Shown: in pieces, positions 1 through 29,210 of the stretch | Layout: every line of letters starts with the position of its first letter | How positions within the stretch are numbered: position 1 is the first letter of the stretch | Source: Fimicolochytrium jonesii | Taxonomy: Eukaryota | Direction: 5' to 3' | Assembly (NCBI RefSeq): GCF_025526975.1 | Contig: NW_026515674.1 | Span: 496,001 to 560,000 of the forward strand | DNA: 64,000 nt | The notes under the pieces: generated by a model | The model's database searches: none | The model's input: only the letters and a program-made list of their open reading frames with translations | What the model was told of the DNA's origin: nothing | Position numbers and translations under genes: made by a program

Positions 1-1959
1 CGACTTTCAGAATCACCCTAGATTTGTTCTATCCGTCCGATACAGCCTGGTTAGATACAGCGGCACAACGGATCGACGGCGCTTTCTTCGAGGAGCCCCC
101 GGAAAGCCGGGCGGAATTTGCCGAACGTCTCAACAACATGAAAGTCGCGTTATGGTCGACACATCGTGATGCGATCAGTGACGTGCGACTCGAAACGTAT
201 CTGGCTCGCTGGAAGGTGCCATATAAGTACGTGGACGACCCCTGGCCATCACCCGATAAACTCACACCTGCGGAGAAAACCCGCTGGAACGACTTGTTCA
301 AGTCCTTCGATATGGTAGTGGTTGACGATGTTGTAGATCAACTTAGATTTTTGGACGCCGTCATGGAGTCGAAGGATAACCCCGTGATTGTGTACACCAC
401 AACACTCGCAAATTTCAGTGAAGCATGCGCTGCGGCAGCGCCGTGGGACGGAAAGGTTCGTTTTGCCCTGAAGCCCCTTGGACCCGTCAAGCTCCTTCCG
501 CTATTTTGGGAATTCTTGATGAGCACCGAGGCACACTCGGTTGATAGCTTCGACGCAAACTTCCGCAAAATGATCAAGTCTCGAGGAAAACTCGACGTTG
601 ATCTCGAGATGGATCAGATGCGGGCGAGATACGATTTGGTCGGACTCGGTCCAGTAGGCGTCCCGCCCACAGATCAAGATCCAACGAATAATGACAGTGA
701 GAAGAGCCCGGAGGAGAACGGGTCAAAGACTCAAGACGATGGTTCTCAACAGTCACCGGCCGTGGAAGATGACTTCCGTGTGCTGATTGCCGAGGTACGG
801 CCTCTCTTCTTCTGCTTGTTCTTGTGTAATTAATGATCTCATCGCCGTTTTCCACCTCAACAACAGGACAATCCCAGTGAGTTTACAATCAGCCTTGATG
901 CGTTCGTTGTTCCATCGATGGGGTCCTGACGTTACAACTAGTCAATCAACAGATTCTGGCCACCTCACTATCGAGAAAACGGCTGAAGCATGACATAGTG
1001 GAAAATGGACAGCGGGCGGTGGACGCATGGACGGAGAAGCGATATCAAGTGGTAAGCACACTTGCTCCCTCTCGCACTCGCAAAGCTTAACGCTTCTTCT
1101 ACGTCCTTTCGAATCGGTCCTTTTATCATTAGATATTAATGGATGTCCAGGTAGGATTAGCAAGGGGAAAACGATCGCACATCACGAGCTCGCTCACCTA
1201 ACAGCCGTCTGTTCGTCCATATTTTGCAGATGCCAGTAATGAATGGCATTGATGCCGTTGCTATCATCCGCCGCCGAGAGAGAGAGTTCGCAGCCGAAGC
1301 CGAACGTACCAATGTGAAGAACTCTGCCAATACTACGGAAGCCGCACTGAATGGAAAGCAGGGAGCCCCGTCGCGCACGAACATCGTTGTTCTCACGGGC
1401 TTGGACAGCCCAGAGGATCAGAAAGCGGCAATGACGGCTGGCGCCGATTTGTTCTTGACTAAAGTGAGTGGTCGCTACTCACATGCGGCGTTTTCCGCAA
1501 AATCAGATCGTGGCGCGGCGCGGGCATTGGGTGAAACTCCGAAATAACGCTGTCCACTTACAGCCGGTCAGTATGAAGCGGTTACATGCGTATATCTCGC
1601 AATTGATCGACGTACCGACGTCTCATATCGAAAACATTGCGACCGCTCCCCGCCGAAACCTCACTCGGAAGGAAAGCAGAACCAAAAAACCAAAAGATGC
1701 GACTCCCACCAAGTCCGAGGCCGATAAGCCCTTACCGCGATTAACACGAAGACAGCAGGAGCAGCTCAACCATACCATAGTCACCTCCACTGATCTTGAA
1801 GACAATGTTTCTAAGGAAACCGAGCCCAGCCTTACTGTTGGCATGCCACCACACGTTGATCGCAAGTTTGGACATACGGCTCGTTCGCCGTCAAGTTCGT
1901 CTGACACAATATCTGAGATGTCTTCGAATAACAGCAGCATTGCTCTTCTTGGGGATTAG
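1..1959 (+). CDS. 3' part of a two-component response-regulator receiver protein (SSK1-like, or C-terminus of a hybrid histidine kinase); multi-exon, 5'-truncated by window
   Basis: Manual splicing gives RVLIAE-DNPINQQIL...ENGQRAVDAW...ILMDVQMPVMNGIDAV...IVVLTG...AGADLFLTK-PVS, a complete receiver domain. Uses micro-exons 867-876 and 1133-1150; stop at 1957-1959. Confidence 0.8.
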
Positions 1960-2348
1960 TGTACTTTAGACATGACGGAAGATATCGATGATCTCTCATC
2001 GCAGGGAAAGGACTTCCGTCGGACTGCATGAGACCCGGCTTGACACATAGACCTCTGCATCTTGTACATATACACAATCATCCCGTGGGCAGGATGGACC
2101 ACCAGTATGGGCCTTCGTAGGCCAACGTCATTATACATGGGCTATTGCTGCGTGCGCAAGCTACATTGATACCTGCCATGTCCCTACCATGCCACAATTT
2201 GCCGCCCACGGCGATGCACGAAACAAGAACCCATGCGGCATTAAGGGTCTAAGCAGAGGCTTATCCAGATTTTCGTTAATGGCCATGTCCAAGATTTGCA
2301 TTTCGCTGCTTTTTGTATGTACATACAGCACATACTGTACAGTACCTC

Positions 2349-2382
2349 ACGCGTCAGGCACGCGTTCAAAAGTGACGCGAAA
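2349..2382. promoter_or_regulatory. Cluster of MCB/SCB-like motifs upstream of DNAAF4
   Basis: ACGCGT at 2349-2354 and 2360-2365, ACGCGAAA at 2375-2382, about 100-130 nt before the ATG at 2482. Confidence 0.35.
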
Positions 2383-2481
2383 GTTTCCAAGTTCAAAAGC
2401 ACTTAGACCTCTTGCGTTGCCGTATGTTTTTGCAAGAAGCACATCTATACACAGTGCTCAACAGCGGTCGTTTCTGCGGGC

Positions 2482-4358
2482 ATGCCGATCATCATCAAAG
2501 AGTACACATGGACGGAGTCCTCAACGCATGTCTATTTGACGATTCCGTTGAAGGGTGCAAACCCCAAGAAGACGGATGTTTATGGTATGGGAGTCATACA
2601 AAACCTGCACCAAATGTCAGCTTCCGCTTACTGGATGCTGATATATTGCCCCGTTTTCCTTTCAGTCAATGATGTGTACGTGAAGGTCAATTTTCCGCCC
2701 TACTTCTTCGAGTTGGATTTGGCACATGAAGTGGATAGCGAAAATGCGGTTGCTACGATTGGCAACGGATGTGCGAAGTTGGAGCTACCAAAGGCATGCG
2801 GGACGCCATCGCATTACTTCAGTTGAACATATCATCTGATTCGTTCCTTCTGATAGCAAATCGAGCAGCCCTGGACGACGCTTACACACACGCCTACATC
2901 CCCGGACTCTCTCAAATCCCGACGCGCAAATGCAGACGAGAAATCCAGAGCTCGCATTGCAGCAGCGCAAGAAAAGAAGCTGGCAGCACGGCGTGAGAGG
3001 GAGAGGGCGCTGGTTCAGAAGCAGATTGAAGTGGAGCGAAATGCAAGGGAGGAGGTCGCCCGCTTGAAAGAAGAAGAAAGGCGTGCCGCTGTAGAAGACT
3101 TGGCGGGCTGGACTCGGAATGTGGAAGATGGGGAAAGACGGAGAGACCGGATGGAGTCGAATATTCGAGGGCAAACCTCGTCGGAGGACAAAATCACAGA
3201 GATATTCGAGGACGATGACCTTGTATCTACGCATAGCCGTGCGATCGAGAACGAATATACGTCGGGCCCTGAGGATGCGGTAGCCCAGGAGCCTGAAAAC
3301 ACGATCACGCATGCATCTTATATACAAGAAGTAAATGACTCTGAGGAAGATGAGGATGGATTGGACATGGAAGAAATCAGAGCGAAAGTGCGAAAGCAGC
3401 TGCAACGTGAGCCATGATTTGGGACCTGTGAGAGGAAGACGTGTTTGCTCATTCGTATTCTGGATGCCCTTTCGAATACAGCTAAGAGTGTTCCTCCCCC
3501 ACGGGACGTAGACCGGGAGATCATCATCTCTTTTACATCACGAGGATTGAAACCCACGAAAACAGCCCGGGAAAGCGAAGATGGTACGCTTGGGTAGCTT
3601 CCTCTATCCTGTTCCACATCGCTTCGCAAACCTAACCGCCATGTCGCTTTGGTAGTAAAATGGGAGACCCGCATCAAAGCGATGCAGGATGAGCACGAGC
3701 TGAAGCAGAAAGCGATAGCCGCCAAAGCCGCTGAGACTGACGCCAATGGCATTGACGAGACAAACCGTATGGATCCAGATTGCCATTTCATCATCGTCCC
3801 TTATAGCTAATCCGTCAGGTTCCCATTCAGCGATCTTCCTGAAGGACAAAGGAAACGCGTTCTACAGGACAGGAAACTTTGAAGCAGCAATAAATGCATA
3901 CTCGGCCGCATTGAAATTGGACCCGGACAGTCTGCCGTAAGTAGTTCTGCCCGAAGATTGTCCATTGGAACAATGCTCAAGCGTTCTGCCTCGTCCACTC
4001 ATCTCGCAGATGTCTCTCCAATCGCGCCGCGTCCTACCTCCACCTCTCTCAACATGACTCTTGCATCAAAGATTGTACAGCAGCTCTCGACCTTCTTTCC
4101 CGCGAGGAGAAGAACATAATTGAGAAGATGATCAACGACACTCCAGCGGCAAAGGAACAGCGACGGATCTCCAGGGTGAAATCACTTGTTAGGAGAGGAG
4201 CAGCGAGCTTGAAGAGCGGGAAGAGGACCGAGGCTGTGAAAGATTATACTGAAGCCTGTGGAATAGATCCTCGGAACGAGGGATTAAAGGATGATCTGGC
4301 CGTCTTGACACTGGCAGAGCCACTGCAGACGTTGGGCGCCCAGGAGAAGGGACGTTGA
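2482..4358 (+). CDS. DNAAF4: Axonemal dynein assembly factor 4 (DYX1C1); CS/p23 domain, coiled coil, TPRs; multi-exon
   Basis: N-terminus MPIIIKEYTWTESSTHVYLTIPLKG...YVKVNFPPYFFELDL...ATIGNG matches the DYX1C1 CS domain. C-terminal TPRs: LKDKGNAFYRTGNFEAAINAYS and VKSLVRRGAA. Confidence 0.9.
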
Positions 4359-4546
4359 GCTAGATTTATAAATCGGGACGTAGGGAGACCTTAGCTTTGT
4401 ATTTCCAACGAACATATGTAATTCGGTTGATGCTCCATTGTGGAAGCCGAGCTTACTTTTTCATCTTCCTTTTCATTACTCATTGCCCTCCTCCAAACTT
4501 GAAGATGACACCCCTCGCGCTCGAATCTTCGATATATATAGCTCAA

Positions 4547-4745
4547 CAGGTCGCAGGCCGCGCACTTGCCGATCAAGACCTGATTACGAATATGTGAAAT
4601 GTTCTACATAACTCTCAGTGAGCCGCTTTGGAAAAAGGTGTGACGGGCGGCCCTTGCTAAATGGCTACAAGTTGCCTTCATCGGCGACGCCTCAGGCAGA
4701 GGTACAATGATGTGGATGGCAGATAACCACCACGGAAAATGGGAT
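4547..4745 (-). ncRNA. Candidate Fanzor omega-RNA scaffold region
   Basis: Immediately 3' of the Fanzor stop. Inverted-repeat stems seen by eye at 4712-4733, 4673-4698, 4620-4653 and 4547-4582. Exact ends unknown. Confidence 0.45.
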
Positions 4746-4760
4746 GGGGTGAAATCTAGA

Positions 4761-7676
4761 CTACCGGTTACGGGAGAATGCGTCTGATCTGCGGCCATTG
4801 CCAAACACCACCGAACGCACAATCGAGAGGAAATTCTTGGTGCTCAGGACGTCCCAATTGTGCACTCTCATCCGTAGTCGTAGTGGTCGTCTTCCAGGAA
4901 TCTCAAATGGTGTCCAGTCTTGGTTGATACATTCGGGATTGGGGCAACCACCAATCCATGGACGTATTCCATTCTTCCCTTTCTAGCTTGCCATGGCCGA
5001 GATGACAGCCGCTGTAGGATGTTTTTCTTCACACGGCCGTGGCAGTCGGGACACACGGACGACGTTCGATACTCATCCAGCAAGTAGCATGGAATGCTGT
5101 TTCTTGCAAAGAGTGTGCGGAATCTGATTTCCATGATGAGTTAGCATAATAGAATACATAGTAGATACCACCAATCATGGTCACTCACCCCTTGGTCTTC
5201 GATGACTCCTGAAAGCGCATCGTTTTCCCAGCATCGCTCCAATCACCCAAGATGACCGAAAAATTCTTTCCATACCGGCGTCGCATGTTCTTAATGAGCT
5301 TGCTCTCAGACTTTTGCCGCAGTGAGAACGCCTTGAACCTGCGAGCGACGTGAATCTCATCCTGGTAAAACTCATCCAGGGCGGGATCTGGGATATGGAT
5401 GGATGTCAGCCCATGTATTACTAAATTTGAAGACAGCGCATAATACATCATACCTGCATGTATGTGATCCACAATGAACGCTGAGAACGCCTCGATGTTC
5501 ATGCTCTTGTGCGATGGAATATGTGATTCCATCTCAGCAATGCCGGCATTGATCTTTCGCTCTCTCATGTCTCTTTGAAAGTACCGAGACTTTGTCTCGA
5601 CCGCCCGTTGATTGGATGTGTATCTGGTTGAGGTGGTGCATTGTGAGAACGCTGCAACGGAATGTCGCCGCAATGGGGATGGTGGGCGGAGACGGGGGGA
5701 TGGTGGGCGGAGACGGGGGGATGGTGGGCGGAGACGGGGGGATGGTGGGCGGAGACGGGGGGCTGGGGGGCGGAGATGGGGGGCTGGGGGGCGGAGACGG
5801 GGGGCTGGGGGGCGGAGACGGGGGGCTGGGGGGCGGAGACCGGGGGGGGGTAGCAGGGACAGCAGGGCAGTAGTAATCAACTGAAACGTACCGAAATGGC
5901 CGCTCCTTCTTGATGTCTCGACAGAACAAGAGGTAATGCTTGCCCGGATCAATGCTGATGATGTTTGGAGCCTCCCGTAGTTTGGCGATGTGGTGCTCAA
6001 AATACAGCTGCTTGACTTCTTCCTGCATTTGGGCTTTGCTGCGCTTCCGGGCGCCATGGCCGTACTTGAGCCCTGGCTTCTTGAAGTGGATGGTAGCGGA
6101 ATACCCGTTTGTGCTGATTGACCCATCAAATTTGAGACCAAGCTTCTTTCGATGCTTGAAGACCTTGTCCTACAATCTGTCATTCAGCAAAGTAATCAGA
6201 TTGAAATAAGCGCAGAAGGATACAAACTTACATTGATGTTGAGAAACTGCCCCCACAGCTCCCGCTTGCGTTGATCGGTGAGTTTCCCCATGCAATGGTG
6301 GCTCAAGCCCAGGATATGAGTGGCTAGGATCTTCGTGTCGATCCTAACAGATGACTTGATTTGAGATTTGCGTAGCGGGATCACTGAAAACAGCCGCATT
6401 CCACAGTGCTCATAGAGGCGTGAGAGCTCACAATAGGCACCTGTGACGAGGCAGGTGCGGAGCAAGATTAGACAAAAGAGGAAGCTGGGGGGGGGGGGGG
6501 AAATATACTAACTCACCTAAATATGGCATTGCATCCACCGCAAGGCTGTACGCAAGCGGTTCATCCTGGGGAGGAAACAGAGCCCATAACTTGTCGAGGA
6601 CGGTCCGCTCAAGTCGTGTGAGGCGCGCAAACTCTTCTTCGGTTGGAAACTCTTCAAACGTCGCATACTTTTTAAACTGACGGACACGCTGATAATAGTG
6701 TCGCCGCTGCACTCGGTTGACTCCAGCTCTACGGAGATGCAGTACGACTTGCTTCAAACCAAGCCTTTCATTGACGTAGCGCAGAAACATTTGCATGAAA
6801 TGCTCTTGTACGTTAACTTTGAGGTTTGTGAAGATGCTCGTAGCCGTGTACGCTGCGGTCTGTTGGCAATACCGCATGCGGATGGGGGCAAATCCGTGAA
6901 CATCACAGTAGTCTTGAACCCATGGATGCAACTGTTGCGCGATGACCGGATTGCCGTTGTAGCCTGGATTGTTTAGCAGCTCAAATATCACACTGATGTG
7001 TTTGTCGGTGATGTCCGGGAAATCGTGTAGAGGATGATCAGCTGTGGTGGGGGGCAGACGTAGCAGTCAGGACATTGGTTTATGGGAAATATACAGTGTA
7101 CCTCAAAAACTCACCAAGGTAGTACTTGAGAAAAAAGCTGGTGTGGCGCGCAAGGATGTGAACATTGCCGATGAATGTTGTCAGGCGCTCCCTTTGCTCC
7201 CTTTGAACTTGATTATGGATGATTCGGTGAAGCGAAACCTTGGTGCTGGCATGTGTTTGCGGGCGGGGTCGTTGAACTGGTGGTGGTGGCGGGGGCTCAA
7301 GCACCAGGGATCCACCCGGTGTGCTGGGAAAAAGGAAAGGGATGGGAGCGCGGAGGTTCAACGGGCGCTGCAGACCCCTGTCCGCGGGTGAAAGCCCTCG
7401 CTGCGGCAGCTGCTGCTGCTGCCCGTCTTCATCGCCGGAGCTCTCACCGGAACTCTCGCTAACCATGTCTGCAATTGCTTGGGGCAAGTGGCGTTGGACA
7501 GACGGTGGGAATTCAAATCGCGGGGGTGGTTGCAATGGTGTCTGCACAGCGGTTGGCAGACGTATGGGCAACCGCGGGGTAACCGGAGCAACCTTCCTCC
7601 TCTTCCGCCGTGGTGTGGTAGCTCCGGTAAAGATGCCACACCACAGGTGCCCCTGGAGCGCCTGGTGTGATGGCAT
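4761..7676 (-). pseudogene. Fanzor1 (TnpB/Cas12-related RuvC endonuclease), 7 exons, about 768 aa after repairing one frameshift near 4950
   Basis: Exons 7676-7115, 7041-6517, 6440-6232, 6169-5892, 5623-5454, 5387-5189, 5123-4761, all GT-AG. Motifs: LFSVIPLRK..VRIDT, FDGSISTNGYS, RuvC-I IISIDPG, VILGDWS, RuvC-II LLDEYRTSSVCPDC, second zinc pair CPNPEC, RuvC-III NWDVLSTKNF. Exon total is 2306 nt, one base short of a whole number of codons. Confidence 0.9.
5675..5840 (+). repeat. G-rich 21-bp minisatellite (8 copies) inside Fanzor intron 4
   Basis: 4 x GGGGATGGTGGGCGGAGACGG, then 4 x GGGGCTGGGGGGCGGAGAYGG (last copy partial). Confidence 0.95.
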
Positions 7677-7945
7677 GATGGCCGTGCTGTGCCTTAAGTC
7701 AGCCGAGACGGGTGGTGATTGCCGTGATAGCTGTGGGTCAAGGAACTCACGTCAATGCTGTGGTAATGAGGCTGAGAACGGTGAGGAATTGCGGTTGTTA
7801 CCTGGTGGCGGTTGAAGGTGAAACCGGGGATGCTTACTGCTCACAATTGCGTTGGGAAGGAAGGGGGTTGGGAAGGAAGGTTGGTGGGAAGGAAGGGTGG
7901 TATGTAATTGGGAGTGAGGATCCCCACGTTTTTTACACGCGTGTA

Positions 7946-8267
7946 AAGGTAGCTTCCTGGTGAGCTGTGTGAATTCAAAAGTGATCTGTTTTAGTGTTTT
8001 CTCCCGAGTGCTACTGTCAGCAACGACAATACTGCGGAAGGCAGCCAAATCATCGTCAGAAGGCTGGTACTTAGCTGGTCTTCCTGTTGGCTTCTTCGAT
8101 TGATAGGCGGTTGGTGCAGTGGCACTCTCGTTCGCAAACCTCTCAATAGTGTTCCTCACAGTATTCCTGTGAACGTGCTCCTGCCTTGCAATTTCAGATG
8201 TCGTCTTGCCTGCTATATGGAGGGCAACTATGGCTGCCCTTTTTTGTGGTGTGAGAGGTTTCCCCAT
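7946..8267 (-). pseudogene. Truncated Tc1/mariner (IS630-Tc1) transposase; N-terminal HTH DNA-binding region only
   Basis: MGKPLTPQKRAAIVALHIAGKTTSEIARQEHVHRNTVRNTIERF...KPTGRPAK...TLKQI gives HTH1, the GRP AT-hook-like linker and the start of HTH2. No DDE domain follows. Confidence 0.8.
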
Positions 8268-8391
8268 AGCTGAGGTGGTGAAGATGTTGGCGTGCATTTC
8301 GCCATCACGGCTTCGTCGCTGGCTTCAATACTCAAGCTTGCGGCTCCAAAACGCGCGGTGCGCTTTGTGAAACGGTCATTGAAATCCATAT

Positions 8392-8424
8392 GGGGTGCAC
8401 ACAGCTTTTTGTCCACTGACTGTA
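8392..8424 (-). repeat. Tc1-like terminal repeat plus TA target dinucleotide
   Basis: Minus strand reads TA CAGTCAGTGGACAAAAAGCTGTGTGCACCCC, a CAGT...AAAA...CACCCC pattern typical of Tc1 ends, about 155 nt upstream of the transposase ATG. Confidence 0.65.
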
Positions 8425-8679
8425 CATGTACAGGTATTGCAGATGATTGCGGGACTTTTTTTTTGAGAAGGAAGCGCCTTTGGCAGTGCAGAGAATGCAA
8501 GCTACTCGGCACACCTTCCCGAAGACCCTGTTGTGGAACTCGTTACTTTATTCCCCTTCACACATACCACTCGTTTTATAGACATTTGATCGGACGGTCT
8601 GCACACACACACAACCAGCTCTCTATCTGCAGAGAAGAAAAGGGGGAGGGGTACGGTAGCTATAAAAAGGAAGCTGTGG

Positions 8680-9262
8680 TTGAAACTGGTTGTTTACAAC
8701 ACTCCCTCTCAGACTACAGATCGTCGCACCCCGGAGGAGATGGAGGCGGAGAGAAACCGTCTCTCATCGTTGAAGGCCCAGCGACTGCGAGAGAAGGAAA
8801 TAGCGACGATAAGGGCTGTGGCGGAGAAAGCTCGAAGGAAGGGCGAAAAGGCGTTAGCCGCAAGAGAGCTGGCCAGCCGAAAGGCAGAGGCAACGGCCCG
8901 CATGAAAGAGAAGCGAGTGGCAAGGAATCACGGTGTTCTCGCATCTCGCTTGAACATGGGCGCGACGACAACAGCAGCGGTCTTCGAGTCATTCTTGCGA
9001 GACGATGTCATCCCTAGAATGGAGCAAAATGGAGCAAAACCCTCGAGCCTGCGTTAATGAGGAGTATAGTTTTGTTGCGCACATCTCGTGGAGGCTGCCC
9101 CTATGCCGGGCTGCCTCAACACTCGAAGAAAATTTAACAGCACTGGGAGTTGAACTCTTGACCCATGCGTCCACAAGCCAAGCTTCTCCAACCACACCAA
9201 GTACCATTGTTGAGTTTGTGGATATCAGGGGGAGTGTACAGTGTATGTATTTGTTGTCGTGA
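8680..9262 (+). pseudogene. Orphan ORF with a charged helical N-half, frameshifted by a 10-bp tandem duplication
   Basis: ORFs 8680-9057 and 9005-9262 join in frame if one copy of AATGGAGCAA (9018-9037) is removed. TATAAAA at 8661. Confidence 0.4.
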
Positions 9263-9435
9263 AAACGGCTGCATGGCCTTCTGGCACTACTGTCAGAATC
9301 GCGGACCGCGTCTGCCGAATGTGAGCGCTGAGGCTCCCAACTGGAAGACTTGAAGCCTTTCTCCAGTAGCTCGAAAAACGAATTTGACATTCCCTACGGG
9401 CGACGAGGAGACGAGGCAACTATACAGTCAGCGCA

Positions 9436-11427
9436 ATGTTGACTCCAGCCTTCACAATCTCGCAGGACGATGAGTTCGTCACCGTGGTCTTGAAGTGTCC
9501 GTATGTCAAGGTACCTCCTACGAATTTTTATAAAGAATTCTTGCTTCCCTCCATATGAGTCTAAGCAATTGGCTGACTGAAGCCCTTAGGCACAAGATGT
9601 CGAGTTCTATATCAGTGACACCGAGTTCAAGTTTTATATCAGCCCGTACTTCTTGCGGTGAGCCCTGCAAAGTCTCACATTTTTCGCCCTGCCGCAATTC
9701 GGTTCTTATATTACGACCTTACAGGTTGAACCTCCCGGCGTCGGTAGTGGAGAACGGGCGTGAAACAGCAGCGTATGATGTTGACAAAGGCGAAGTCACT
9801 GTCAAAATACCCAAAGCGACGCCCGGGGAGCACTTCCCAGACCTGGATCTTCTGACGAAGTTATTAGCGCCGAAGGGACCGTTGCCGCCTGGACTGGGAG
9901 AGGGGACGGGGATAAGTGGTGGTCAAGCGGCGTCGGTCTCAACGAACGATGCGCCGAGATCGTTGATTCAGGTGGTTGGGGATATACCTGCAAGTGATCA
10001 GGATGGGGATGCGATGGATGAAGGGGATGAAGAAGATGGTAAATGCGAAGGCTTCTTTATGCAAACGCCGATCGGTGGCTCACGCTTGAACCTCCAGGTC
10101 AGAACTATCATTGGGACTTGCCACAAACGTTGCCAATAGAACCGGTAAGGCTCACCTTTTGTTCAGTGAACACTGAGATCCTGCAACGTATCGGCTCACA
10201 TCCTGATGAATAGGAACTGCGGATCACAAATCGCTATGGCTTCAACAACGCGTACAGCGGGATAGGGGATCACATCCGGGAGATTGCCCAGGAAATCATA
10301 CAGATCAGCAATGTGGACGAGTCCACCGCTCAGTCTCGAAGGGAGGAGCGTATTGCGCAAGAGGATCTGAAATTCGATGAAGAGCATTACATGTGCGTTG
10401 GACGGCTGTTCGTGGGATGCGCAATCAGTGCCAAAGCGTTTCTAATGTATGATCTTAGAGCAGACTATCTCAATAAGGACGAGATCGACCCTCTGATTCA
10501 ATTCAAACCGGAATCATGGAAAGTTCTGAAAAGGATACAGACCCAACGACGACTCGCGGAGGCGGCCAAAGTCGAGACCGCCAATGTCGGTTCAATCCCT
10601 TCGAGTGATCCGTCGTTGACCGAGAAGTGGCTCGCTTTCAGCGAGCAGGAGCAGGAACAAATGCGGAACCTACCGAATAAAGAATGTACGTAGCCGTTGC
10701 CTCCCCCCTCCCCTCCCCCCTGGTTCAAACACCAATCTCACATCCTCAACAGATCTGCTCGACGATGAGCGCGCAGCATATTTGGGGTTGGTGGATCTCG
10801 TCTTTGCATACAGCTACAACCATCGGACAACAGAGGGGGAGAACACGGTCGAGTCCCCGTGGACTATCGCAATCTTGAGCGCCACACTCTCGTCCTTCGA
10901 GGCAAGCATCTTTCATCCGCAAATCGCATCGTGCGAGTGATTAATGCTTGAACCTTCAATCAGACATTTGGCACCCTCCGGGAAACCTTAATAGCGTCCG
11001 TCCGCCGCTCTCTGGCGTTCCCACTGTACCGGTCCTTCGCGCTAGCCACGCGATGCATTGAGGACACGGCAGCGATGTTCAAATTGGGCAAACGGGCTCT
11101 GTTGAAAGCCGTTTTGCAGATCCAATCGTTGGTGGGCTCTGATGACAGGATGTATATCTTGCGAAAGATATGGATCGATGACTACGCCGTGTGGATTCAG
11201 CAGGCGAGGTGAGTCTCTGCGTGTGTCCTCAATCTGTATACGTGAAAGGAACGAATCTGACAACTTCCGTGGGCAGCGAGCGGAAGATTCAGTCGTTGGC
11301 CAGCGAGCTGAATCACATTAGCCTTAAGAAAGACGAAATAGGATGGGATCTCGAAAAGTTAGAGCAACTTGCAAACGATATGCCCCCCGAAGATGCAGAC
11401 CCTGAAGGGCCTCAAATGATGCTGTAA
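9436..11427 (+). CDS. SHQ1: H/ACA snoRNP assembly factor SHQ1; multi-exon
   Basis: MLTPAFTISQDDEFVTVVLKCPYVK...FYISPYFLRLNLP, GEHFPDLDLLTKLL, YGFNNAYSG, EDLKFDEEHY, ENTVESPWTI, RRSLAFPLYR. Confidence 0.93.
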
Positions 11428-11612
11428 GCCGTCAAAAGCGCATTCCAGCGATCGCTGGATTCTCAGGCGGCGCACCAAATCCGGAACTTATTCCACAAAA
11501 CGAACATCATATGTCCACTCGGATTCTCTCATCGCTTCATGTATTTAGACGCCGCTGAATCAACGTCGATGGGTTCCCTACCGCCCATGCACGTTGTTCG
11601 TTCTATCGCTCG

Positions 11613-12725
11613 TCAGTATTCCAAAATTGGCGCTCCCACTTCCTCTATACATGGAATGGTGCATTTCAGGTCAAAGGCCTTTGCCAGCACGATTTTAAAT
11701 ATCTTCTGCACGTTTATCGAATGTGATGTAGAGCAAAAGATCAGTGGTGCTTTCATTGCTTTTGCGAATCTCCGTGCCTGTGCGGGGCAAATATTAGAAT
11801 TGGGGTGACTCTGAGTTGGAACCGACATAAGCTTACCTGCTTGGTGATCTCTTCCTGCTCCTCCCTTGGAAACGCCGCGAATTGATCATATTTCGTCCCG
11901 ACCAGAAACGGGATGGCCGTCTATATGTCAGGACAGGGTCAACATCCACACCAGCCATCACTGTTCAGGACATATTGACCGCAATGCATCAGAACTAACC
12001 TTATTGAACCCCCTCGCTTGCCTATACCATTCCTTGATGCTATTCAGCGTGGACTTCCGTGACAGGTCAAACATAAACAGGATCGCTACAGCGTCGTTAC
12101 ACACCAGAGGCAACATGTTGACGAACTCCCGTTGCCCTGCATGAAAACCAGTTCCAGGAGCTGTGTTGTCGGCTTTTCAAGACAGCTCACATCCACGCAC
12201 CTCCCAAATCCCAGATACTGAACGTGATTTCCGTATTCCGGATAGATATCGTCTTTTCCATGAAATTCACCCCTTGATGACATTGGCGACGATTTTCAGC
12301 GAATGTTGGCATGAAGGTAACACACAAAAATATCGTGCATACCTAATGTTTGTATGTAGTCTTCGTCAAAGCTTCCCTCCACGTATTTCACCATCATACT
12401 CGTTTTTCCAATCTGGCTGTCTCCGACCATCCCGACTTTGATAACCACACTAGATGGAGAAGAACGCGCTCAGCAACTTGTACAGCGTAGTCGGGCGTCG
12501 CTCAGCCACCATTGCTTGCGCTCAAACTTTTTCGAACGAGACATTTGGGCGGGCAGTCCAAGCGATATCCTTCACTTGAAGACTATCGAAATGGCAGTAT
12601 GCTCCAGGAGTGCTGTGTCGAAGCGTGCCGGCCGCGACATTCAAGTAAGGCCTTACGGTGACCTACCTATTCTTCCGCGGAGTGGTGTCCGAAGATGACC
12701 CGGTCCCGGGTGCGGCCGTATTCAT
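11613..12725 (-). CDS. TEM1: Septation/mitotic-exit network Ras-like GTPase Tem1/Spg1; multi-exon
   Basis: [36 protein letters not shown]...[19 protein letters not shown]...[31 protein letters not shown]. Confidence 0.93.
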
Positions 12726-13086
12726 CGTTGCGCCGCGAGCGAAGGTAGAGTGGTGAGAATAGAAAGCAGATGGTCGTTGTAGGCGGTATCTTTCTACGGT
12801 GGGAAGTTGGCGGCGGATATCTCGTAAGTAGTCCATAAACGGAGACCTTCAAGTTCAACGGGAGAAGCGAACGACGCGTGCGACAAACGCGTGAGGAAGT
12901 TCGCAAAGAAGAAGCAGCGTTTTCCTTATTCTCATAAAACTATCTTGTGATTAGTCACGTGGCTGGCAGTCGTAGCTTCTCAACGCTGCCTCCGGCGCCC
13001 AGCACAAGCGAGAGCGTCGTCGACGCAATCGAGCCAATCCTCCTAGCACTCCCACCTACAACAAACCGAGAGGAAGTGTTGCTACC

Positions 13087-13669
13087 ATGTTGTTCTCTGC
13101 CGCCCTCCGACCAGCGGCCCGTCGCACCGTCGCTTCCCGTGCCGTACAGCGTCGCTTCGCTTCCCAGGGCCACCCCGCTAACTCCTCCGTCTTTGCCCGC
13201 GACAACTTCGCAAAGTACGTGCCGGACGTCAAAATCTCCCCCGAGACCACCCTCGGAGAGCTGTGGGAGAAGTGTTACGTCAAGTACCGCTACAGGCTCC
13301 TGTACCCCATTGCCGCTTGGGTTGGATTCCTCTACTACCAATTCTGGGTACCGTAAGTATCTTTTTCGGGACTTTCCGGGTGCAGGCAGAACGGTCGCAA
13401 TTGGGGGAAGTGGGATATACCAAAGGGTCGAACGAAATGCGCTGGAGGAGGGGGACACCGAAATCAAATGGACTTTACTGTGTCAACCCAGAATGGCCTA
13501 TAGGACGATCGGCTGAGTGATGGGTGCGGACCTTGTTTGAAATCTTGATGCCCTGACCGCCGCTTTCGCAAATCTCTTCCCGGCCTCTAGTTACACTCCC
13601 GCCTCTGAGAAGAAGAAGCTGAAGGCCAGGGAAGACTACCTCGCCGGTCTCGAATACCACGCCGTTTAA
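13087..13669 (+). CDS. Small (about 114 aa) protein with a mitochondrial presequence-like N-terminus and one TM helix; 2 exons
   Basis: MLFSAALRPAARRTVASRAVQRRFAS presequence, hydrophobic LLYPIAAWVGFLYYQFW, intron 13353-13590 (GTAAGT...TAG), C-ending codon bias. Confidence 0.7.
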
Positions 13670-14062
13670 ACGACCACCCGCATCAACATGAATATGAACT
13701 GATGGTATGTACAAATGCGATGATGTTCTCCATGGAAATTTGAGTGTCGGCAGACACTGATGCTTGAGTATTTACAGGTCACGTCTTCCGTGAAGGTGGC
13801 ACCCGGATAAGGCAGATATTCCCCCAGGGCGGAAGTCTGTCAATACGAAGACTGGACTTCCCACCTTCCCATACTTCCTTTATCCGTTATCCGCCTTCTA
13901 CTTGATGTCTCTTAAAAAAATGGATATCTGTTGGAGATACGTTTGCTCGTTGTTGCCGACATCGCGGGGCCCGTGTTCCGGGATGAGAGATCGGAATCCG
14001 TGGGGCCGGAAAGAGATACGTTGAGGACGAAGCCGTCGTGCCGGAATAGGGCGGGGACGCTG

Positions 14063-16954
14063 TCATGCGGAAGCCTCCACCACTCCCTCATTCCGGAGCA
14101 GTCCCAAAAAGTCGTTTTGCCGCTGATGGATCTGCGCAAAGGTTCCCGGGCATGAGCACATTGGGGAAAATGAAGATGGAGGCAGCCAAAGAAGCTTACC
14201 TCTTTCGTGATGGCGTCCGCACGCCGAGCTTGGATGTCCACGGTCTTACGCAACCGCCCGACTTCTTCTTTATATTCTTTGGCACGACCTTTAATGCTCT
14301 GCACTTTTGTTTTGAAGAGCTGTTGTGACTGTTCATCACAGGGGAAGGGAAGTGTCAGACCTTGGGAACTTTCTGCTTGACAAGTCCCAGCATTAGATCT
14401 CTGGAATCAGAAGTTTTACCCGCTGAAGCAAGTCCTCCAGTTCTCTCGTTTTGTCCTCCCAGTCCTGTTTCTCCTTCACGGCGAGCTCGAGCTTCTGTGA
14501 TAATGTTTGCTTTTCACGTGTCCATGTGCTCTGTTGCGGAAGGAAATATTTCCATCAGTAGTTGTTCGACAAGGGTATGCTTCATTGTAATGAATGTGCG
14601 AGTACTCACTTTCGCTCGCTCGGAGCGCGTGACGTAGGCTTCGCGCTCTTCCGCCGACAACGCCGTCGCTTGATCGAGTTCGGCCTGTAAGGATTGCAGT
14701 GCGCTCTCGGCTTTCTGCAGATCTGATCTGAAGGACAAAAAAAAATGTCTCAATGTTCTTGATCCATCTCACTAAACATCATGCAGGGCCGACAAGCGTT
14801 ACCTCAACCGCTCTACCTCCCTCCTCTCCCTCTCCCCCACCGCCCCAGCTTCAGCAGCCTGTCCCTCAGCCTCCTTCAGCTCCCTGCTCACCCGCTCCAC
14901 CTCCCGATTTGCCTTCTCCAGCGCCGCGGCAGCATCCGCCGCGGATTTGGCCAAAGATTCGTTATGGGATTGGAGAGCACGGTTAGACGATTTGAGTGTG
15001 GACAGCTCGTTTTGGAGGTCCCGGCGGGAGAGCGTGTGTTGGGATTCGAGGTGGGCGAGGTGCTCTTTAAGGGTTGTTAGGTCGGATTGGAGCTGTTGAT
15101 GAGAGTTCCGTGATGAGGAGTATTTCGGGGTAGGAAGAGAAGAAGGGCACAGCTACGAGACCGCTTACATGGTCCCGTTCGGCTTCTACTTGAGCTTTCT
15201 TGCCCCACTCTTCTTCCCTCGCCAGTCGGCATTTCTCCAGGGCGTCCTTCTCTGCGTCCGCAAGACGATGGCGGAAGGACTGTAGTGATTCTGCCGCCGA
15301 TTTGTTTTGGCTGGATAACATTTGCCACGTCAAATTTGTTATTGGCCGCTTGAGATGTTGACGGTAACACTCCATTTGCCCACCTTTCGAAGTCCGTTAG
15401 CTTCACTTTGAGATCAGCGATCGCATTCTCGTACTGATTCCGTTCTTTGAGCGCCGCAAGGTTCATATCGCTAACCTTGACCCTACACTCATCACAAAGC
15501 AGTCAGCTCGACAGTCCAACCCCCACATCCCCAGCCACCCCCAAGAAACGCACTTATAAACATGCACCCCCTCCTCGCCCAAACTTTTAACCCGCTCAAC
15601 CTCCTTCCTCAGCTCATTATTCCCCTCCGTAACAGCATCCAAGCTCCGCCGGGCCTGATCGAGCTCGTTGCTGAGCGCGGTGACCCGTGCGGCCAGGGCG
15701 TCTTTTTCGGATTGGAGCGCCTTGCCGTAGGAAGTTTCGTCGAGGAGTTTGCGGGTGTGGAGGCGGGTGGTTTGGTCCAAGGTCAGTTGGAGCTTTTCTT
15801 TGCTTGCGCTGCCGTGGTGGGGGGAAAGAATTCAGGATATGGGCGTATTCGCACTCTGGGTAATGATACACGTCCCCCCCTCACCGGAGTTCCTCAAGTT
15901 CAGGTAGCAGGCTCGCCACCTTCAGCTGCAAATCCGCGTTGTGGCGTTGGAGCTCGCGCATTCGTCGGGTATCTCCCGCAGAGTCTTCACACGTGAATGA
16001 AACGGTGGTATCAGCCAAATCATCCAAGTTGCAGAACTGCCCACCCCGCCCCGCAAATACATGCTGATACACACCCAAAGTCTGCCGAAGCTCCAACGTG
16101 CGCGCCTCCAGAGCCGCCAGCTCGTCCTGGTACAAATTCTCCATCTCTTTGAGTTTCGAGCTCGTCTGCGCTCGCTGTATGATGCAAAGTGATGTGTGAG
16201 ATCTCTGTCCGGCTGCCCCCTGTTGATCTGGAAGCATCATGCTCCTTGCGCTTACCTCCCGATCGATATCCGCCTTGGCCAACTCATGATCCCGCCTTAA
16301 CGCATAGTACAGCGATCGATACTTCTCCGTCTCCTATACATCCGTAGATCCCATCAATAACCGCCAACCCCCACAACCCCGCACAACCCCTCCCACCCCC
16401 CTCCCCACCTTCTCAATCTCCCTCCAAGCCTTTACCCTCCTCGCCTCCACCTCCCGCACCGTCCTCAACCGCACCAGTTCCAGATCCTTCGGGTTGGGAA
16501 TCTTGGCCCGCGCCGCTTCGAGTTCTTTGCGGTTCTGCTCGAGTTGGGTGTGGAAGTGCGTTGCGAGGTCGGTTGTTTGGGTTTCAAGGACTGCCTGGAG
16601 GGGGGGTTAGGGGAGTGGATGTAGGGGGAAGGAGGGGATGATGAGGGAAGTACGCACTTTTTCTTTTGCGATGATGTCGAATTCTGTTGTGAGGTCGGCT
16701 TGGCGTTCTTGGAGGCGTTCATGGTTCAGTTTTAACTAAACACAAGCGGCACTATGAAACACACAATTTCATGCTTTTCTCCAAATTTGGAAAACTCGTC
16801 AAGAACTTACGGTATCGAAATTCTCTTTGAAAGCCTCATTCTCGCTCCGTAACGTCTCCACAAGGTCCAAGGCCACTCTGAGCTTCTCGAGGACGGACGC
16901 GGAGACTTCGGCGTCGGCTTCCGATTCGGGGGGTGGTGGTGGTGGGGACGGCAT
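14063..16954 (-). CDS. CEP83: Centriole distal-appendage coiled-coil protein CEP83/CCDC41-like; multi-exon
   Basis: PNPKDLELVRLRTVREVE...EKYRSLYYALRRDHELAKAD, DTRRMRELQRHNADLQLKVASLLPELEELR and C-terminal QRQNDFLGLL resemble conserved CEP83 blocks. Confidence 0.7.
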
Positions 16955-17490
16955 GGTGTGCGTGATGGAGGGAGGGGGATAAGCTGGGATTGACGTGGAG
17001 GGGTTGTAACTTACTGGAGGTTGATGAATCTGGTGTTTTTTTGGAGGTCGGAAAATGACTGCGGAAAGAAGGGCGCGTCACCCACGCGTTTCTGTCAGTT
17101 CGCTGTCAATCTGCCGTCTCGCAGCTCTCCCATCTGCAGCTCGTACAAGACAGCCTTTTACGGCTCGCCAAAGACATATACCAACCCCACAGCATAAGCA
17201 TGAGAATCCTGTAAAAAGGTGTCCTTTTGGCACTCCCTAATCAACACATGAGATATATATACAAAGGCTCAATTCAAAAAATTGTGCATACGCGGGATGG
17301 GGAGAAATGGAAAGAGTCAAGAAGACGAGAGAAAAAAAAGTCTATAGAGATTCGTCCCATCTATACGGTCCGTCCGTCAGTCATGTCCAGTCTTACGCCG
17401 ATATCATATCATACGAAGAAGGGGGAAGAAGAGACGAAACAAACATCAAAATCTACTGGTAGCGTCCAGAGTTCTCCAAATGTCAGATTT

Positions 17491-19121
17491 TCAGAGGGAT
17501 CCGAGCACGACGACACCGACAGCAGCGAGGACCATCGATCCACCAGCGACGATGGTGGACGAGTCTGATGTCGGCTTGCTCGTGGTCGAACCGGCGTTGC
17601 TGCCACCAGCCGCGGGAGTGGCTCCGCTTGCTGGGGCGGCACCCGTGCCCGTCGAGGAGAGGCCTCCAGCGGCAGCAGCGGGCGCAACGGTCGCACCGTG
17701 GATGGCGGAGGCGGCGAGGAGGAGCTCGGTGGTGGGGTATTGGTCGTAAGCGCCGGCAACAGGCGCCGTGGCGGTGATCCACTGCCTGCTGCACATCCAG
17801 GTGTCATCGCAATTCTTGACGGCGGACGTGAGCGTGTTGTCGATGATGGTCTGGATGGAGGTCTTGAGGGCTGCGTCGGTGGTGACGGTGTAGAGAATAC
17901 CCAATCCCTTGGCGAGTTGTGGGAGGTAGACGACGTTGTCACGGGTGCAGGTGTGGACGGCGCATGGCGTTTCAGCGAGGATGCCGTTGGTTTGGTACTT
18001 GGCGATGGCAGCTTTGGCGATGTTGGCTGCGTCGTCTAGGTAGGACTGTACTTTTGTGGCCTTGTACATGTAGGCCAATCCGCTGATGAGGGTTCCCCCT
18101 GTGTAGGAGAAGTCCAAGGTATTGACGACACAGGTGGTAGCTTCCATTCCGTCGCGAACAACCCAGTCGGTACCGACGATCTGCGATGTCTTCATCCAGT
18201 TGTAGGCATTGGAGGCCCAGGTCAGGTAGGTTTGGTTGTTTGTCGCCACGGCCAAACGGGCACCAAGGACAATAGCTTCTGCGTTGGTGATAGCAGACTT
18301 GTAGTCCTTGCCCTTGGCAGCGTTTCTGTCACGAGACCAGTAAACACCTCCTCCGCACAGGGGGTCCCATTGCTCCCACATCTCTTGCATAGTCAGTTCT
18401 GCGATGCTCAAGAAGGTCTTTCCGTTGCTGTTCGGTGTTGTCGCAGAGAGACCATACGAGTCGGTTGCCGACATCACTGGAAGAAGGGAAAGGGATGAGC
18501 GAAGCGATGGTTAGTTGGGTGCATGCACTCGAGAAAGAAGCAGTACGATCAACGATCAACCATCGACAACCATCAACAACCATCAGCGTGAGCGTGGAGC
18601 GGATGATTGAACGATAGGAAGTTGGATTTGCGGTGGGCAGGAGCGTAGCTCGCTCCGCTCGGTCTCCCTCGCCATCAATCAATGTACTCACTTGCAATAG
18701 CCCACCAAGCGATATCGTCATTCCACTTTCCCCTTAATTTCTCTTGGATTGTGCGCATGGAACCACCGAGTAAATCCCCAGTTGAGCCAAAGCTAGCCTC
18801 GCTGATAGCCTCGCCCACCACCTGATCCTGACTCTTGTCGCCGTTCATAGCGGAGTTTCTGAAAGCGGCATCCCACATGATCCCACTTGCGTACCAAGAG
18901 ATGGTGTTTTGGTCGAAAGCACCCTCGACGCCAGCGGTGTTTCCAAAGCTGGTCTTTTTCGCGCCTGCCTTGTAGAGGTCAACGAGCTTCTGCATGGCGG
19001 CATGAGTAGCTGCGCCGAGAGCAGCTTTATCCTGAACATTGAGGTTCGCAGCTGAAGCACCACCCGCAGCGGTGACAGCGAGGGCGGCAGCGGCCCAGAG
19101 AGTGGAGCGAATGAGGACCAT
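17491..19121 (-). CDS. Glycoside hydrolase family 76 (DFG5/DCW1-like), secreted and GPI-anchored; 2 exons
   Basis: Signal peptide, catalytic WNDDIAWW, CGGGVYWS...YKSAITN, S/T/A-rich stalk, hydrophobic C-terminus. Intron 18691-18477. Confidence 0.92.
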
Positions 19122-19696
19122 TGTTGGATGCGGTCTGATGTGATGGCGAGTGTAACAAGTAAAGGAAGGGTGGGAATATGTATAGGGGGCGGGAGGGGGG
19201 ATGGGGTTACCTGCCGTCTAGTAGTACAGTAATGTGCCAGTGGCCTGCCCGTCTATTCTAGTCTATGCATATGGTTTGTCCAATACGTGGGAACCGCAGG
19301 CGGATATTTTTGGGCCGTTTGGGAGGGGAGCTAATTGTGGGGGGGTGCCGCCGCCCTTTTGGTTTGCGACATTGGAGTCTGGACACCCGGTGAAACGCGC
19401 ACGCGACAGAGCCAGGACTCAGGAGTGAGAAGGGATGCAGAGGGGATTCGAGCGCCACACATGCATTGATCATTTTATTATCTTGCCCATAATCATTACG
19501 TACAGTAAATTAATGAGTATGTCCAACCTCCCATGCTACATAACACCTTGTTAACCTTAAGTTCCCCTCACGCGCCGGAAGTCACGCCAGGTCCACCTGC
19601 CAGCCAGCAAGCAACACCTGGGGAGATTGGCACTCGATCTTGTCAACCTGTTCAGCATCACCCAGACTATACCCTTCTTTGCTCACACTGCCTAGT

Positions 19697-20997
19697 ATGC
19701 AACTGCCTGGTATGCGCGGTGTCGTCTCGCCGCTTCTCTCCTTCCACTCAAGAAATGCCGCTGGACGGACGTGTCGTCCTTCAAGGAGAGCGAAATCGAC
19801 GACTACGACGACGACGACATCCGGCGGCGAGTTTGTCAAGATTGTGGAAGTCGGCCCACGCGACGGTTTGCAAAACGAAAAGACCATCATCCCATCATCC
19901 ACCAAAATCGAATTCATCAACAAACTCTCCTCCACCGGCCTCCCCGTCATCGAATCAACCTCCTTCGTATCTCCGAAATGGGTACCTCAAATGGGAGACG
20001 CCACCGCTGTTCTCAAGGGAATCAAACAGAGGGAGGGTGTCTGGTACCCGGCACTGACGCCGAATTTGAAGGGATTAGAGGGAGCGATTGCGTCCGGGGT
20101 GAAAGAAGTCGCCATCTTTGGAGCTGCCAGTGAGAGCTTTAGTAAGAAGAATATCAACTGCTCGATTGAGGAGAGTTTGAAGCGGTTTGAGGATGTTGTT
20201 GCTAAAGCAAAGGAAAACGGAATCAAGATCAGGGGGTGGGTCTCTGAAAGAGGGCTCAAACATAATATCTAGTGTACTGTGTTGTTTCCTACGTGCTCAC
20301 TGATCGCGCCACCCAACAGGTACGTGTCGACAGTAGTAGGCTGCCCCTACGAAGGCCCCATCGCTCCCGAAAAAGTCGCACAGGTATCCCGCCGCATGTA
20401 CGACATGGGCTGCTACGAAATATCCCTCGGCGACACGATCGGAGTTGGCACCCCCGGCAAGTTCAGCACCATGCTCAAGCATGTGAAGCAGGTCGTCCCC
20501 GTTGAAAGTCTGGCGGTGCATTGTCATGATACGTATGGGCAGGCGTTGGCGAATATCCTGGTTTCTTTGCAGGTAGGGGATCTCGGGAATCGCTTTTCGG
20601 ATTGAACATGGGGTGGGACTCACCATGGCAATCTTTGTTTGCAGCATGGAGTACGCGTAGTGGATAGCTCGGTCGCGGGTCTAGGTACGTTTCTCATTCC
20701 TGCATCATACCCCCCTCAACCCCTGTCACTATTACTAAACACTCACATCTCCTCCTCCCCTATCTCACAGGCGGCTGCCCCTATGCCCACGGCGCAACCG
20801 GCAACGTCGCCACAGAAGACGTCCTCTACATGCTCCACGGCCTCGGCTACACCACGGGTGTTGACCTCCCCGCCGTCGTCTCGGTTGGGAACTGGATTTC
20901 TGAACAGTTGGGCAGGAAAAATGCTTCCCGTGTTGCAGCTGCTATGACCCGACCTGCGAGTAGGGAGAACGCGGAGAAGGCGGCGGCCAAGTTGTGA
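19697..20997 (+). CDS. HMGCL: 3-hydroxy-3-methylglutaryl-CoA lyase; multi-exon
   Basis: [59 protein letters not shown]; ends in AKL. Confidence 0.95.

Positions 20998-29180: not shown

Positions 29181-29210
<30 letters not shown>
29181..29210 (+). repeat. C30 homopolymer in a long intergenic region
   Basis: 30 consecutive C. Confidence 0.95.

Follow-up and report, generated by a model that had tools for sequence, protein, structure and literature searches.

The locus described here raises the question of whether a chytrid gene scattered over several open reading frames (ORFs) encodes an RNA-guided nuclease of the Fanzor1 kind, and whether that nuclease could still work. The gene is on the minus strand, from 7676 to 4761, of a window of 64,000 nt (the whole stretch of DNA that was analyzed) from contig NW_026515674.1 of Fimicolochytrium jonesii. 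An original prediction had proposed a hidden and divergent Fanzor1 whose fragments are joined by six introns. We found a real Fanzor1 gene of a known kind, likely dead, from a family that has already been catalogued as hits. We consider it probable that this copy is a frameshifted, likely inactive member of a multicopy, six-intron Fanzor1 family that is carried on a likely Tc1/mariner-type DNA transposon.

Predicted gene structure

We located six GT-AG introns on the minus strand, as the original prediction had claimed, and they match a gene model in the database. The introns are at 7114-7042 (73 nt), 6516-6441 (76 nt), 6231-6170 (62 nt, phase 0), 5891-5624 (268 nt), 5453-5388 (66 nt), and 5188-5124 (65 nt, phase 2). 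The five short introns (62-76 nt) each have a branch-like motif within their final 45 nt (5 of the 6 introns). Intron 5 is in frame and free of stop codons, and its translation has no counterpart in SpuFz1, the Fanzor1 of Spizellomyces punctatus. Straight splicing of the seven exons gives a protein of 732 amino acids that is identical to a database protein of F. jonesii (KAI8822539, P0002 in our set; source name "uncharacterized protein"), which has the same junction at intron 6. P0002 aligns with SpuFz1 in a single stretch (amino acids 138-713, E = 1.5e-133) that spans all six junctions. Because of the identity to this gene model and the unbroken alignment over six junctions, the splice pattern is better than expected by chance. 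P0002 was predicted separately and has all six junctions, although the underlying DNA is presumably identical. The seven-exon structure is a predicted one that would presumably be followed in vivo.

The exons sum to 2,306 nt (3n+2), which is not a multiple of three. The introns had been said to join the fragments into about 768 amino acids; the straight splice stops at amino acid 732, and a length of 768 requires an X at a break in exon 7. All the motifs that had been named (IISIDPG, CPNPEC, NWDVLSTKNF, LFSVIPLR..IDT, and FDGSISTNG) are present in the predicted exons. Exon 1 (7115-7676) contains a predicted disordered extension of about 125 amino acids, followed by the start of the core. In a sister copy (P0032), residues 1-120 have a predicted local distance difference test score (pLDDT) below 50. 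The extension has a basic patch, PRRKRRK, that is likely a nuclear signal. Exon 2 (6517-7041) contains the helical REC region, including a Gln-Gln pair that contacts the target-adjacent motif (TAM) in SpuFz1 (PMC10432273), and exon 3 (6232-6440) contains the LFSVIPLR..IDT block. FDGSISTNG is in exon 4 (5892-6169), along with the RuvC-I Asp506 (5950-5948) within DPG and, after it, a His-Tyr pair that is Arg-Asp in the family. Exon 5 (5454-5623) is followed by exon 6 (5189-5387), with the GDWSD strand and the lid region. Exon 7 (4761-5123) contains the RuvC-II Glu665 (5074-5072) and a CxxC pair, and then a frameshift; the other frame after the break contains the second zinc pair, Trp738, the RuvC-III Asp739 (4853-4851), and the family stop codon.

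Intron 4 contains a G-rich 21-nt tandem array of 8.2 copies at 5675-5847. The array may be shared by other copies, because the sister model P0013 runs on into a comparable stretch rich in Pro and Ser.

The gene is a Fanzor1

Sequence matches and the fold of a sister copy support a chytrid Fanzor1, as had been proposed, and a quick phylogenetic tree is in line with this. Evidence on the fold came from P0032, a complete-looking sister of 761 amino acids; a single-sequence model of the 732-amino-acid product from the window had a pLDDT of 36.8 and was unusable. In a sequence search against solved structures, P0032 matched SpuFz1 (E = 4.6e-149), PpFz1 (E = 2.4e-37), and GtFz1 (E = 2e-4), and there was no Fanzor2, TnpB, or Cas12 chain among its seven matches up to E = 1. 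The structure of P0032, predicted from an alignment of 138 rows, had a mean pLDDT of 84.5, with the first 120 residues disordered. The comparison with Fanzor1, TnpB, and Cas12f structures that had been called for placed Fanzor1 far ahead. The best Foldseek match was SpuFz1 (E = 1.5e-53, template modeling score of 0.92 by target, 42% identity), and ranks 1-7 were all SpuFz1, PpFz1, or GtFz1 (E = 1.5e-53 to 6.7e-20), with Cas12f and TnpB at E = 1.6e-5 or weaker. Pfam left the Fanzor pieces unnamed. The best relevant match, to Cas12f1-like_TNB (E = 0.018), was below the cut-off, and no family was assigned to any of nine homologues.

The catalytic residues expected of a Fanzor1 can be traced in the read-through. 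Fanzor1 proteins are marked by a DPG-type RuvC-I signature (PMC10711439) and by an alternative RuvC-II Glu just N-terminal to the zinc finger, with Gly or Pro at the canonical site (PMC10530073, PMC10711439). The definition of the Fanzor family includes a C4 zinc finger followed by RD, in which D is the third catalytic residue (PMC3627910). By alignment count, D383, E541, and D606 of SpuFz1 (PMC10432273, PMC11423790) correspond to D506, E665, and D739 of the read-through, with Asp506 in IISIDPG and Glu665, the alternative RuvC-II residue, in LLDEY. The strand ILGDWS is in identical register to VMGDWS of SpuFz1.

We also made the phylogeny that had been suggested, using a quick method on 46 rows with no Fanzor2 or TnpB outgroup. 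The protein from the window fell in a family of eight rows (support 100) that is sister to P0015 of Gaertneriomyces (support 99). This family and P0015 were within a group of 17 rows that includes P0049 of S. punctatus, with weak support (88). By sequence comparison, the gene is a Fanzor1 that is among the closer relatives of SpuFz1, at 42-45% identity, and the description of it as divergent does not fit.

A multicopy family that spread with its introns

The gene belongs to a family, as had been claimed. We defined the family as the gene models with at least 72% identity to P0032, which gave 44 models from the proteins P0001-P0203. All 39 of the names that were looked up were from F. jonesii. 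Copy number was estimated from gene models. The RuvC-III Asp is present in 25 of the 44 models, so there are at least 25 copies. The catalytic triad and four Cys are present in 18 of the 44, and two models (P0032 and P0033) have the triad, four Cys, and 95% coverage of the core. Both of these complete-looking models carry private changes, for example Lys for Thr after EYR in P0032. The short models could be either broken copies or poor predictions. The genes are those of a eukaryotic, transposon-borne, multicopy family, with spliceosomal-type introns, host genes on both sides, at least 25 copies, and varying flanks at the repeat end. One protein listed in a family cluster, P0040, was unrelated by eye and was set aside. 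The model P0018 has a fragment of the family fused to an unrelated N-terminal part, which we take to resemble the tyrosine recombinase of a DIRS-type element.

The intron positions appear to be common to the sister copies. By eye, each of the six sites is one at which sister models either run on into the intron or are spliced wrongly, and therefore the family spread together with its introns, as fits DNA transposition. More distant relatives have other introns. Four loci among related metagenome sequences (L001, L003, L004, and L007) share an intron after RLG/RVG that is not in the window (gaps were inspected in 6 of 32 loci), and L001 has a second intron, after LLG, that is also not in the window. 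All six of the intron positions in the window fall within unbroken tblastn stretches of L001 and L002. Among the relatives examined, the six introns are specific to this F. jonesii family. Gain of introns in Fanzors has been described previously (PMC10530073).

Two of the metagenome contigs contain an intact-looking, two-intron Fanzor1 relative (L001, 5644-7930; L002, 302-2585) that is 41% identical to P0032 over the main stretch and is at the same site in both contigs. Another locus (L006, 2863-3336) is a C-terminal Fanzor1 fragment among intron-free ORFs on a gene-dense contig that is virus-like by eye.

The family is not hidden, as had been supposed. In Table S2 of Yoon et al. 2023 (PMC10711439), 33 proteins from F. 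jonesii are given as hits to a Fanzor hidden Markov model, and these are from the same family, including P0028, P0029, and P0031. The protein of this locus (KAI8822539) and the two complete-looking models (KAI8821362 and KAI8822135) are absent from that table, and none of the five accessions queried was present. In the accessible part of that paper the F. jonesii family is an entry in a list, without anatomy of the gene or the element. The name Fimicolochytrium was not found in the readable supplementary files of PMC10432273, in the supplements of PMC10530073, or in the main text of PMC13434818. Among the listed literature naming this genus, none was on Fanzors by title or start of abstract (bioRxiv supplements and subscription journals were outside the scope of this search). 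The intact-looking sisters, such as the complete-looking P0032 and P0033 that the published list does not include, are the copies worth testing.

The right end of the repeat and a candidate omega-RNA

The right end of the repeat and the transposase fragment described below are features of the element beyond those in the original prediction. The right end was determined with contigs from one soil metagenome run (X1; share of words 0.06). The X1 contigs are found over most of 4585-8707 and hardly at all over the flanks, which fits a repeat in an organism at low depth. Three contigs diverge at a TA at 4666-4667 (one at 4665 and two at 4666, among the 6 of 18 loose ends that were listed), and they run into differing flanks. 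This TA is likely a target-site duplication.

Between the end of the repeat and the stop codon there are 93 nt of non-coding DNA (4760-4668, minus strand). The omega-RNA of Spu-1, the element that carries SpuFz1, consists of a 75-nt scaffold from the right end plus 14-15 nt of flank (PMC10432273). Because the Spu-1 omega-RNA comes from this position, the 93-nt end is a candidate omega-RNA scaffold, by position. It folds into three small hairpins (-21.9 kcal/mol). There was no match to it in Rfam, and no blastn similarity to any of the 32 related metagenome loci. The right end of this copy could still supply omega-RNA to sister proteins, by analogy to the ghost loci of Spu-1.

An upstream transposase fragment and the carrier of the gene

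Upstream of the Fanzor gene, at 7959-8267 on the same strand, there is an N-terminal helix-turn-helix fragment that is likely from a Tc1/mariner-type transposase and is cut off at 7959. The fragment matches Pfam HTH_23 (E = 4.4e-9), with weak matches to the Sleeping Beauty helix-turn-helix and PAX families, and "Transposase Tc1-like" was rank 2 in Atlas (0.92). It is 61% identical to P0046 over 74 amino acids. One X1 contig parts from the window at 7959, and its translation (by hand) goes on in the same frame with GLQVSAKTVR, which we take to resemble the second helix-turn-helix of Tc1-type transposases. The copy of the transposase in the window thus looks cut short. No DDE/D catalytic domain was found in the window, which has the helix-turn-helix part only, or in the one longer homologue that was found. 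A search of solved structures with the fragment gave only GerE (E = 0.07).

A candidate left end of the element is at 8424-8395 (minus strand), where a TA (8424-8423) is followed by CAGT, which resembles a Tc1-like start. No match between this candidate and the right end was found, and X1 depth runs past it into the bin at 8491-8707, with a loose end at 8528. There is a charged ORF of 105 amino acids from 8741 (plus strand) with no convincing Pfam match, and 8491-9057 may either extend the element or belong to a different repeat. There are also two perfect palindromes, one of 16 bases at 7932-7947, just past the break in the fragment, and one of 12 bases at 8420-8431, over the TA of the candidate left end. 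The ACGCGT core of the first was considered as a signal and rejected, as it occurs at chance level (18 in the window compared to 14.9 expected).

We lean, by a modest degree, toward the fragment and the Fanzor gene being one unit, because their strand and order are as in the Mariner-Fanzor1 element PGv-1 (PMC3627910) and because the composition signal is continuous: the DNA is CpG-poor and TG/CA-rich without a clear break from 4601 to 8600. Several observations weigh against this reading and against the right end on which it partly depends. No inverted repeat to the right end was found in 7677-9100 (the best local alignments were equaled by 48 and 138 of 200 shuffles), and no partner of the right end was among the 25 longest inverted pairs in 1-20000; a missing inverted repeat is unlike Spu-1 and typical Tc1/mariner elements. 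No contig bridges the transposase fragment and the Fanzor gene, with a depth of zero in the bin at 7623-7839, and the helix-turn-helix fragment was unmatched in all 32 metagenome loci. The right end depends on a single run with a small share of words, and the 93-nt end folds no better than shuffled sequences (32 of 200 were as stable).

These same gaps favor an alternative that we consider a real, if less probable, possibility: that the Fanzor gene travels in its own non-autonomous element and the upstream Tc1-like fragment is a chance neighbor. There is no terminal repeat common to the two parts, no sister model extends from the start of the Fanzor gene into the fragment (47 queries), and Spu-1 elements are without a transposase (PMC10432273). 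However, the strand and order shared with both PGv-1 and PUl-1 (PMC3627910), the TA at the right end, and the unbroken composition argue against chance, and both parts are under X1 contigs whereas most of the single-copy flanks are not. Of the TA duplication expected at the target site of a Tc1/mariner element, the TA at the right end was observed, and that at the left is a candidate.

A reading that goes further than one unit, and that we regard as unlikely, is that of a still-mobile composite, in which a nuclease of the SpuFz1 clade sits behind its own Tc1-type transposase, the right end has been remodeled into omega-RNA, hence the mismatched ends, and six introns were gained in the lineage. 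If true, this would fill in the transposase that Spu-1 was found to lack and provide a natural nuclease whose TAM is not CATA, and would make the use of Fanzor1 to its transposon testable in one chytrid.

The copy in the window is frameshifted

The likely Tc1/mariner-borne copy in the window is broken in exon 7. Codons for VHGL end at 4952 and codons for GCPNPEC begin at 4949 in another frame, leaving two bases (4951-4950) at a place that a full codon occupies in the sister copies (Val in 24 of the 26 models that cover the site). CPNPEC and NWDVLSTKNF are thus out of frame, and the 732-amino-acid product is without the second zinc pair and without the RuvC-III Asp. We rejected a seventh intron as a way around the frameshift, since the gap is two bases long and, by eye, splicing from GT sites close by would delete the second Cys pair. 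The C4 zinc finger and RD arrangement is seen in sister models, but in this copy its second Cys pair and its Asp fall out of frame, and WD stands in place of RD. The product has also lost the last, C-terminal helix of RuvC (H730-747 as modeled in P0032) and should not cut.

Including the break, the copy differs from the family majority at 20 positions. Four of these are at residues that are also conserved in outside relatives: His510 (Arg in 28 of 32 models), Tyr511 (Asp in 30 of 32), Trp738 (Arg in 23 of 25), and Ser761 (Pro in 22 of 23). In comparison with the family, five of the seven listed losses of Arg are at codons one CpG transition away from Arg. The CpG observed/expected ratio in the element is 0.81, compared to 0.90-1.12 in all 16 other blocks, and that of TG/CA is 1.29, compared to 0.98-1.20. 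A CpG-poor, TG/CA-rich element fits a methylated, decaying repeat, and methylation may have driven the decay. Since the frameshift removes the third Asp, Trp replaces the conserved Arg before that Asp, and Tyr replaces another conserved Asp, this copy is likely an inactive Fanzor1. The original prediction of a nuclease does not hold for the locus itself, given the frameshift and the two lost conserved residues.

It is improbable that the frameshift is an assembly error and that the locus encodes a full, possibly active Fanzor1 of 768 amino acids, although some observations point that way and so count against the break being real. The missing base falls in a short G run, and among the 8 of 36 X1 pieces that were listed, none covers the site (pieces end at 4933 and start at 4996). 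Read across the break, the sequence still has D506, E665, D739, and the full set of four Cys. However, Trp738 in the RD motif (PMC3627910), Tyr511, and His510 are independent lesions that would persist. A soil contig carries the Arg-type base at 4856, and other copies are broken differently, P0004 having its own frameshift nearby. We give hardly any credence to the 732-amino-acid protein being a retained, nuclease-dead, RNA-guided DNA binder, a TldR-like repressor: the frame is open through REC, WED, and the first two catalytic residues, and the locus did receive a gene model, but the lesion is private to this copy among the covering models, the helix that completes RuvC is gone, and lesions across copies resemble random decay.

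How an intact copy might function

By homology to SpuFz1, the spliced protein of an intact copy, about 760 amino acids long, would enter the nucleus. There it may bind an omega-RNA from the 93-nt right end, with a guide of about 15 nt extending into the flanking DNA, and the complex would recognize a TAM that likely ends in TA. Double-stranded DNA would then be cut by the Asp/Glu/Asp site of RuvC, as it is by SpuFz1. The natural target would be the insertion site free of the element, and repair could help to keep or restore the element. The role of Fanzor1 in transposition has been discussed as an open question (PMC10432273).

Six residues of SpuFz1 contact the TAM (PMC10432273). Gln129, Gln130, and Tyr345 are kept in the F. 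jonesii family, Arg291 is kept in P0032 and is His in the copy in the window, Asn133 is Ala, and Arg96 is unmatched. The TA flank, together with these kept and changed residues, suggests by analogy that the TAM ends in TA and may differ from CATA.

The locus itself matters little. What it adds is a map, with an exon structure and with a right end that fixes where the omega-RNA and guide would lie. The changed TAM-contact residues could give a SpuFz1-like editor another range of targets. Two further contributions are a transposase that is a candidate partner of the SpuFz1 clade and an example of introns gained by a mobile gene in one lineage.

Neighboring genes and other scans

The host gene to the left (2407-4358, plus strand) has a CS domain and TPR repeats, and its stop codon and the element's right end are about 300 nt apart. 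It is presumably DNAAF4/DYX1C1. The host gene to the right (9388-11209, plus strand) is SHQ1. From 17494 to 62341, Pfam identified host genes for GH76, HMGL-like, eIF4G, an MFS transporter, RPB1, AATF, GTP cyclohydrolase II, LIM, and DZIP1. At 34266-34759 there are 21-nt arrays that fit the C-terminal repeat of RPB1, and at 29181-29210 there is a run of 30 C. ORFs at 52622-54239 (minus strand) have a laminin G-like domain, a weak TNFR-like repeat, and the class C G-protein-coupled receptor domain 7tm_3, and are perhaps one receptor gene. A search of viral contigs gave 14 pattern matches, none of which was confirmed. A scan for bacterial promoters and terminators, which is not applicable to this eukaryotic DNA, found nothing.

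Comparison with known systems

The closest characterized system is SpuFz1 and its element Spu-1 in S. punctatus (PDB 8gkh and 9ceu-9cez; PMC10432273, PMC3627910). The two share a colinear core of about 630 amino acids with 42% identity, a C4 zinc finger, a short non-coding right end, a TA flank, and many copies in a chytrid genome. They differ in that Spu-1 is a single ORF (PMC3627910), whereas the gene here has six predicted introns, and in that SpuFz1 is without the disordered N-terminus of about 125 amino acids in the F. jonesii family. Asn385 and Asn133 of SpuFz1 are Gly and Ala here, Arg96 is not aligned with Arg, and Arg291 is His in the copy in the window, which, unlike SpuFz1, is frameshifted. 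As described, Spu-1 has an inverted repeat of 30-33 bp and no transposase inside; here no inverted repeat was found and there is a transposase fragment upstream.

The Mariner-Fanzor1 elements PGv-1, PUl-1, and PUl-4 (PMC3627910) also have TA flanks, and PGv-1 has the same order, with the Mariner transposase toward the 5' side and Fanzor1 toward the 3' side. These elements have terminal inverted repeats, in contrast to the transposase fragment, missing repeat pair, and unfixed left end found here. PpFz1 (9cf0-9cf3) and GtFz1 (9cer) share the Fanzor1 fold and the DPG motif but are far more distant, at 20% and 16% identity in the fold alignment. The third catalytic position is Asn in GtFz1 (PMC11423790) and Asp in the F. 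jonesii family. P0015 of Gaertneriomyces (KAJ3177236.1) differs in having 637 amino acids and no long N-terminal extension, but it is the nearest relative outside the family, 54% identical to P0032, with the triad and the zinc finger intact.

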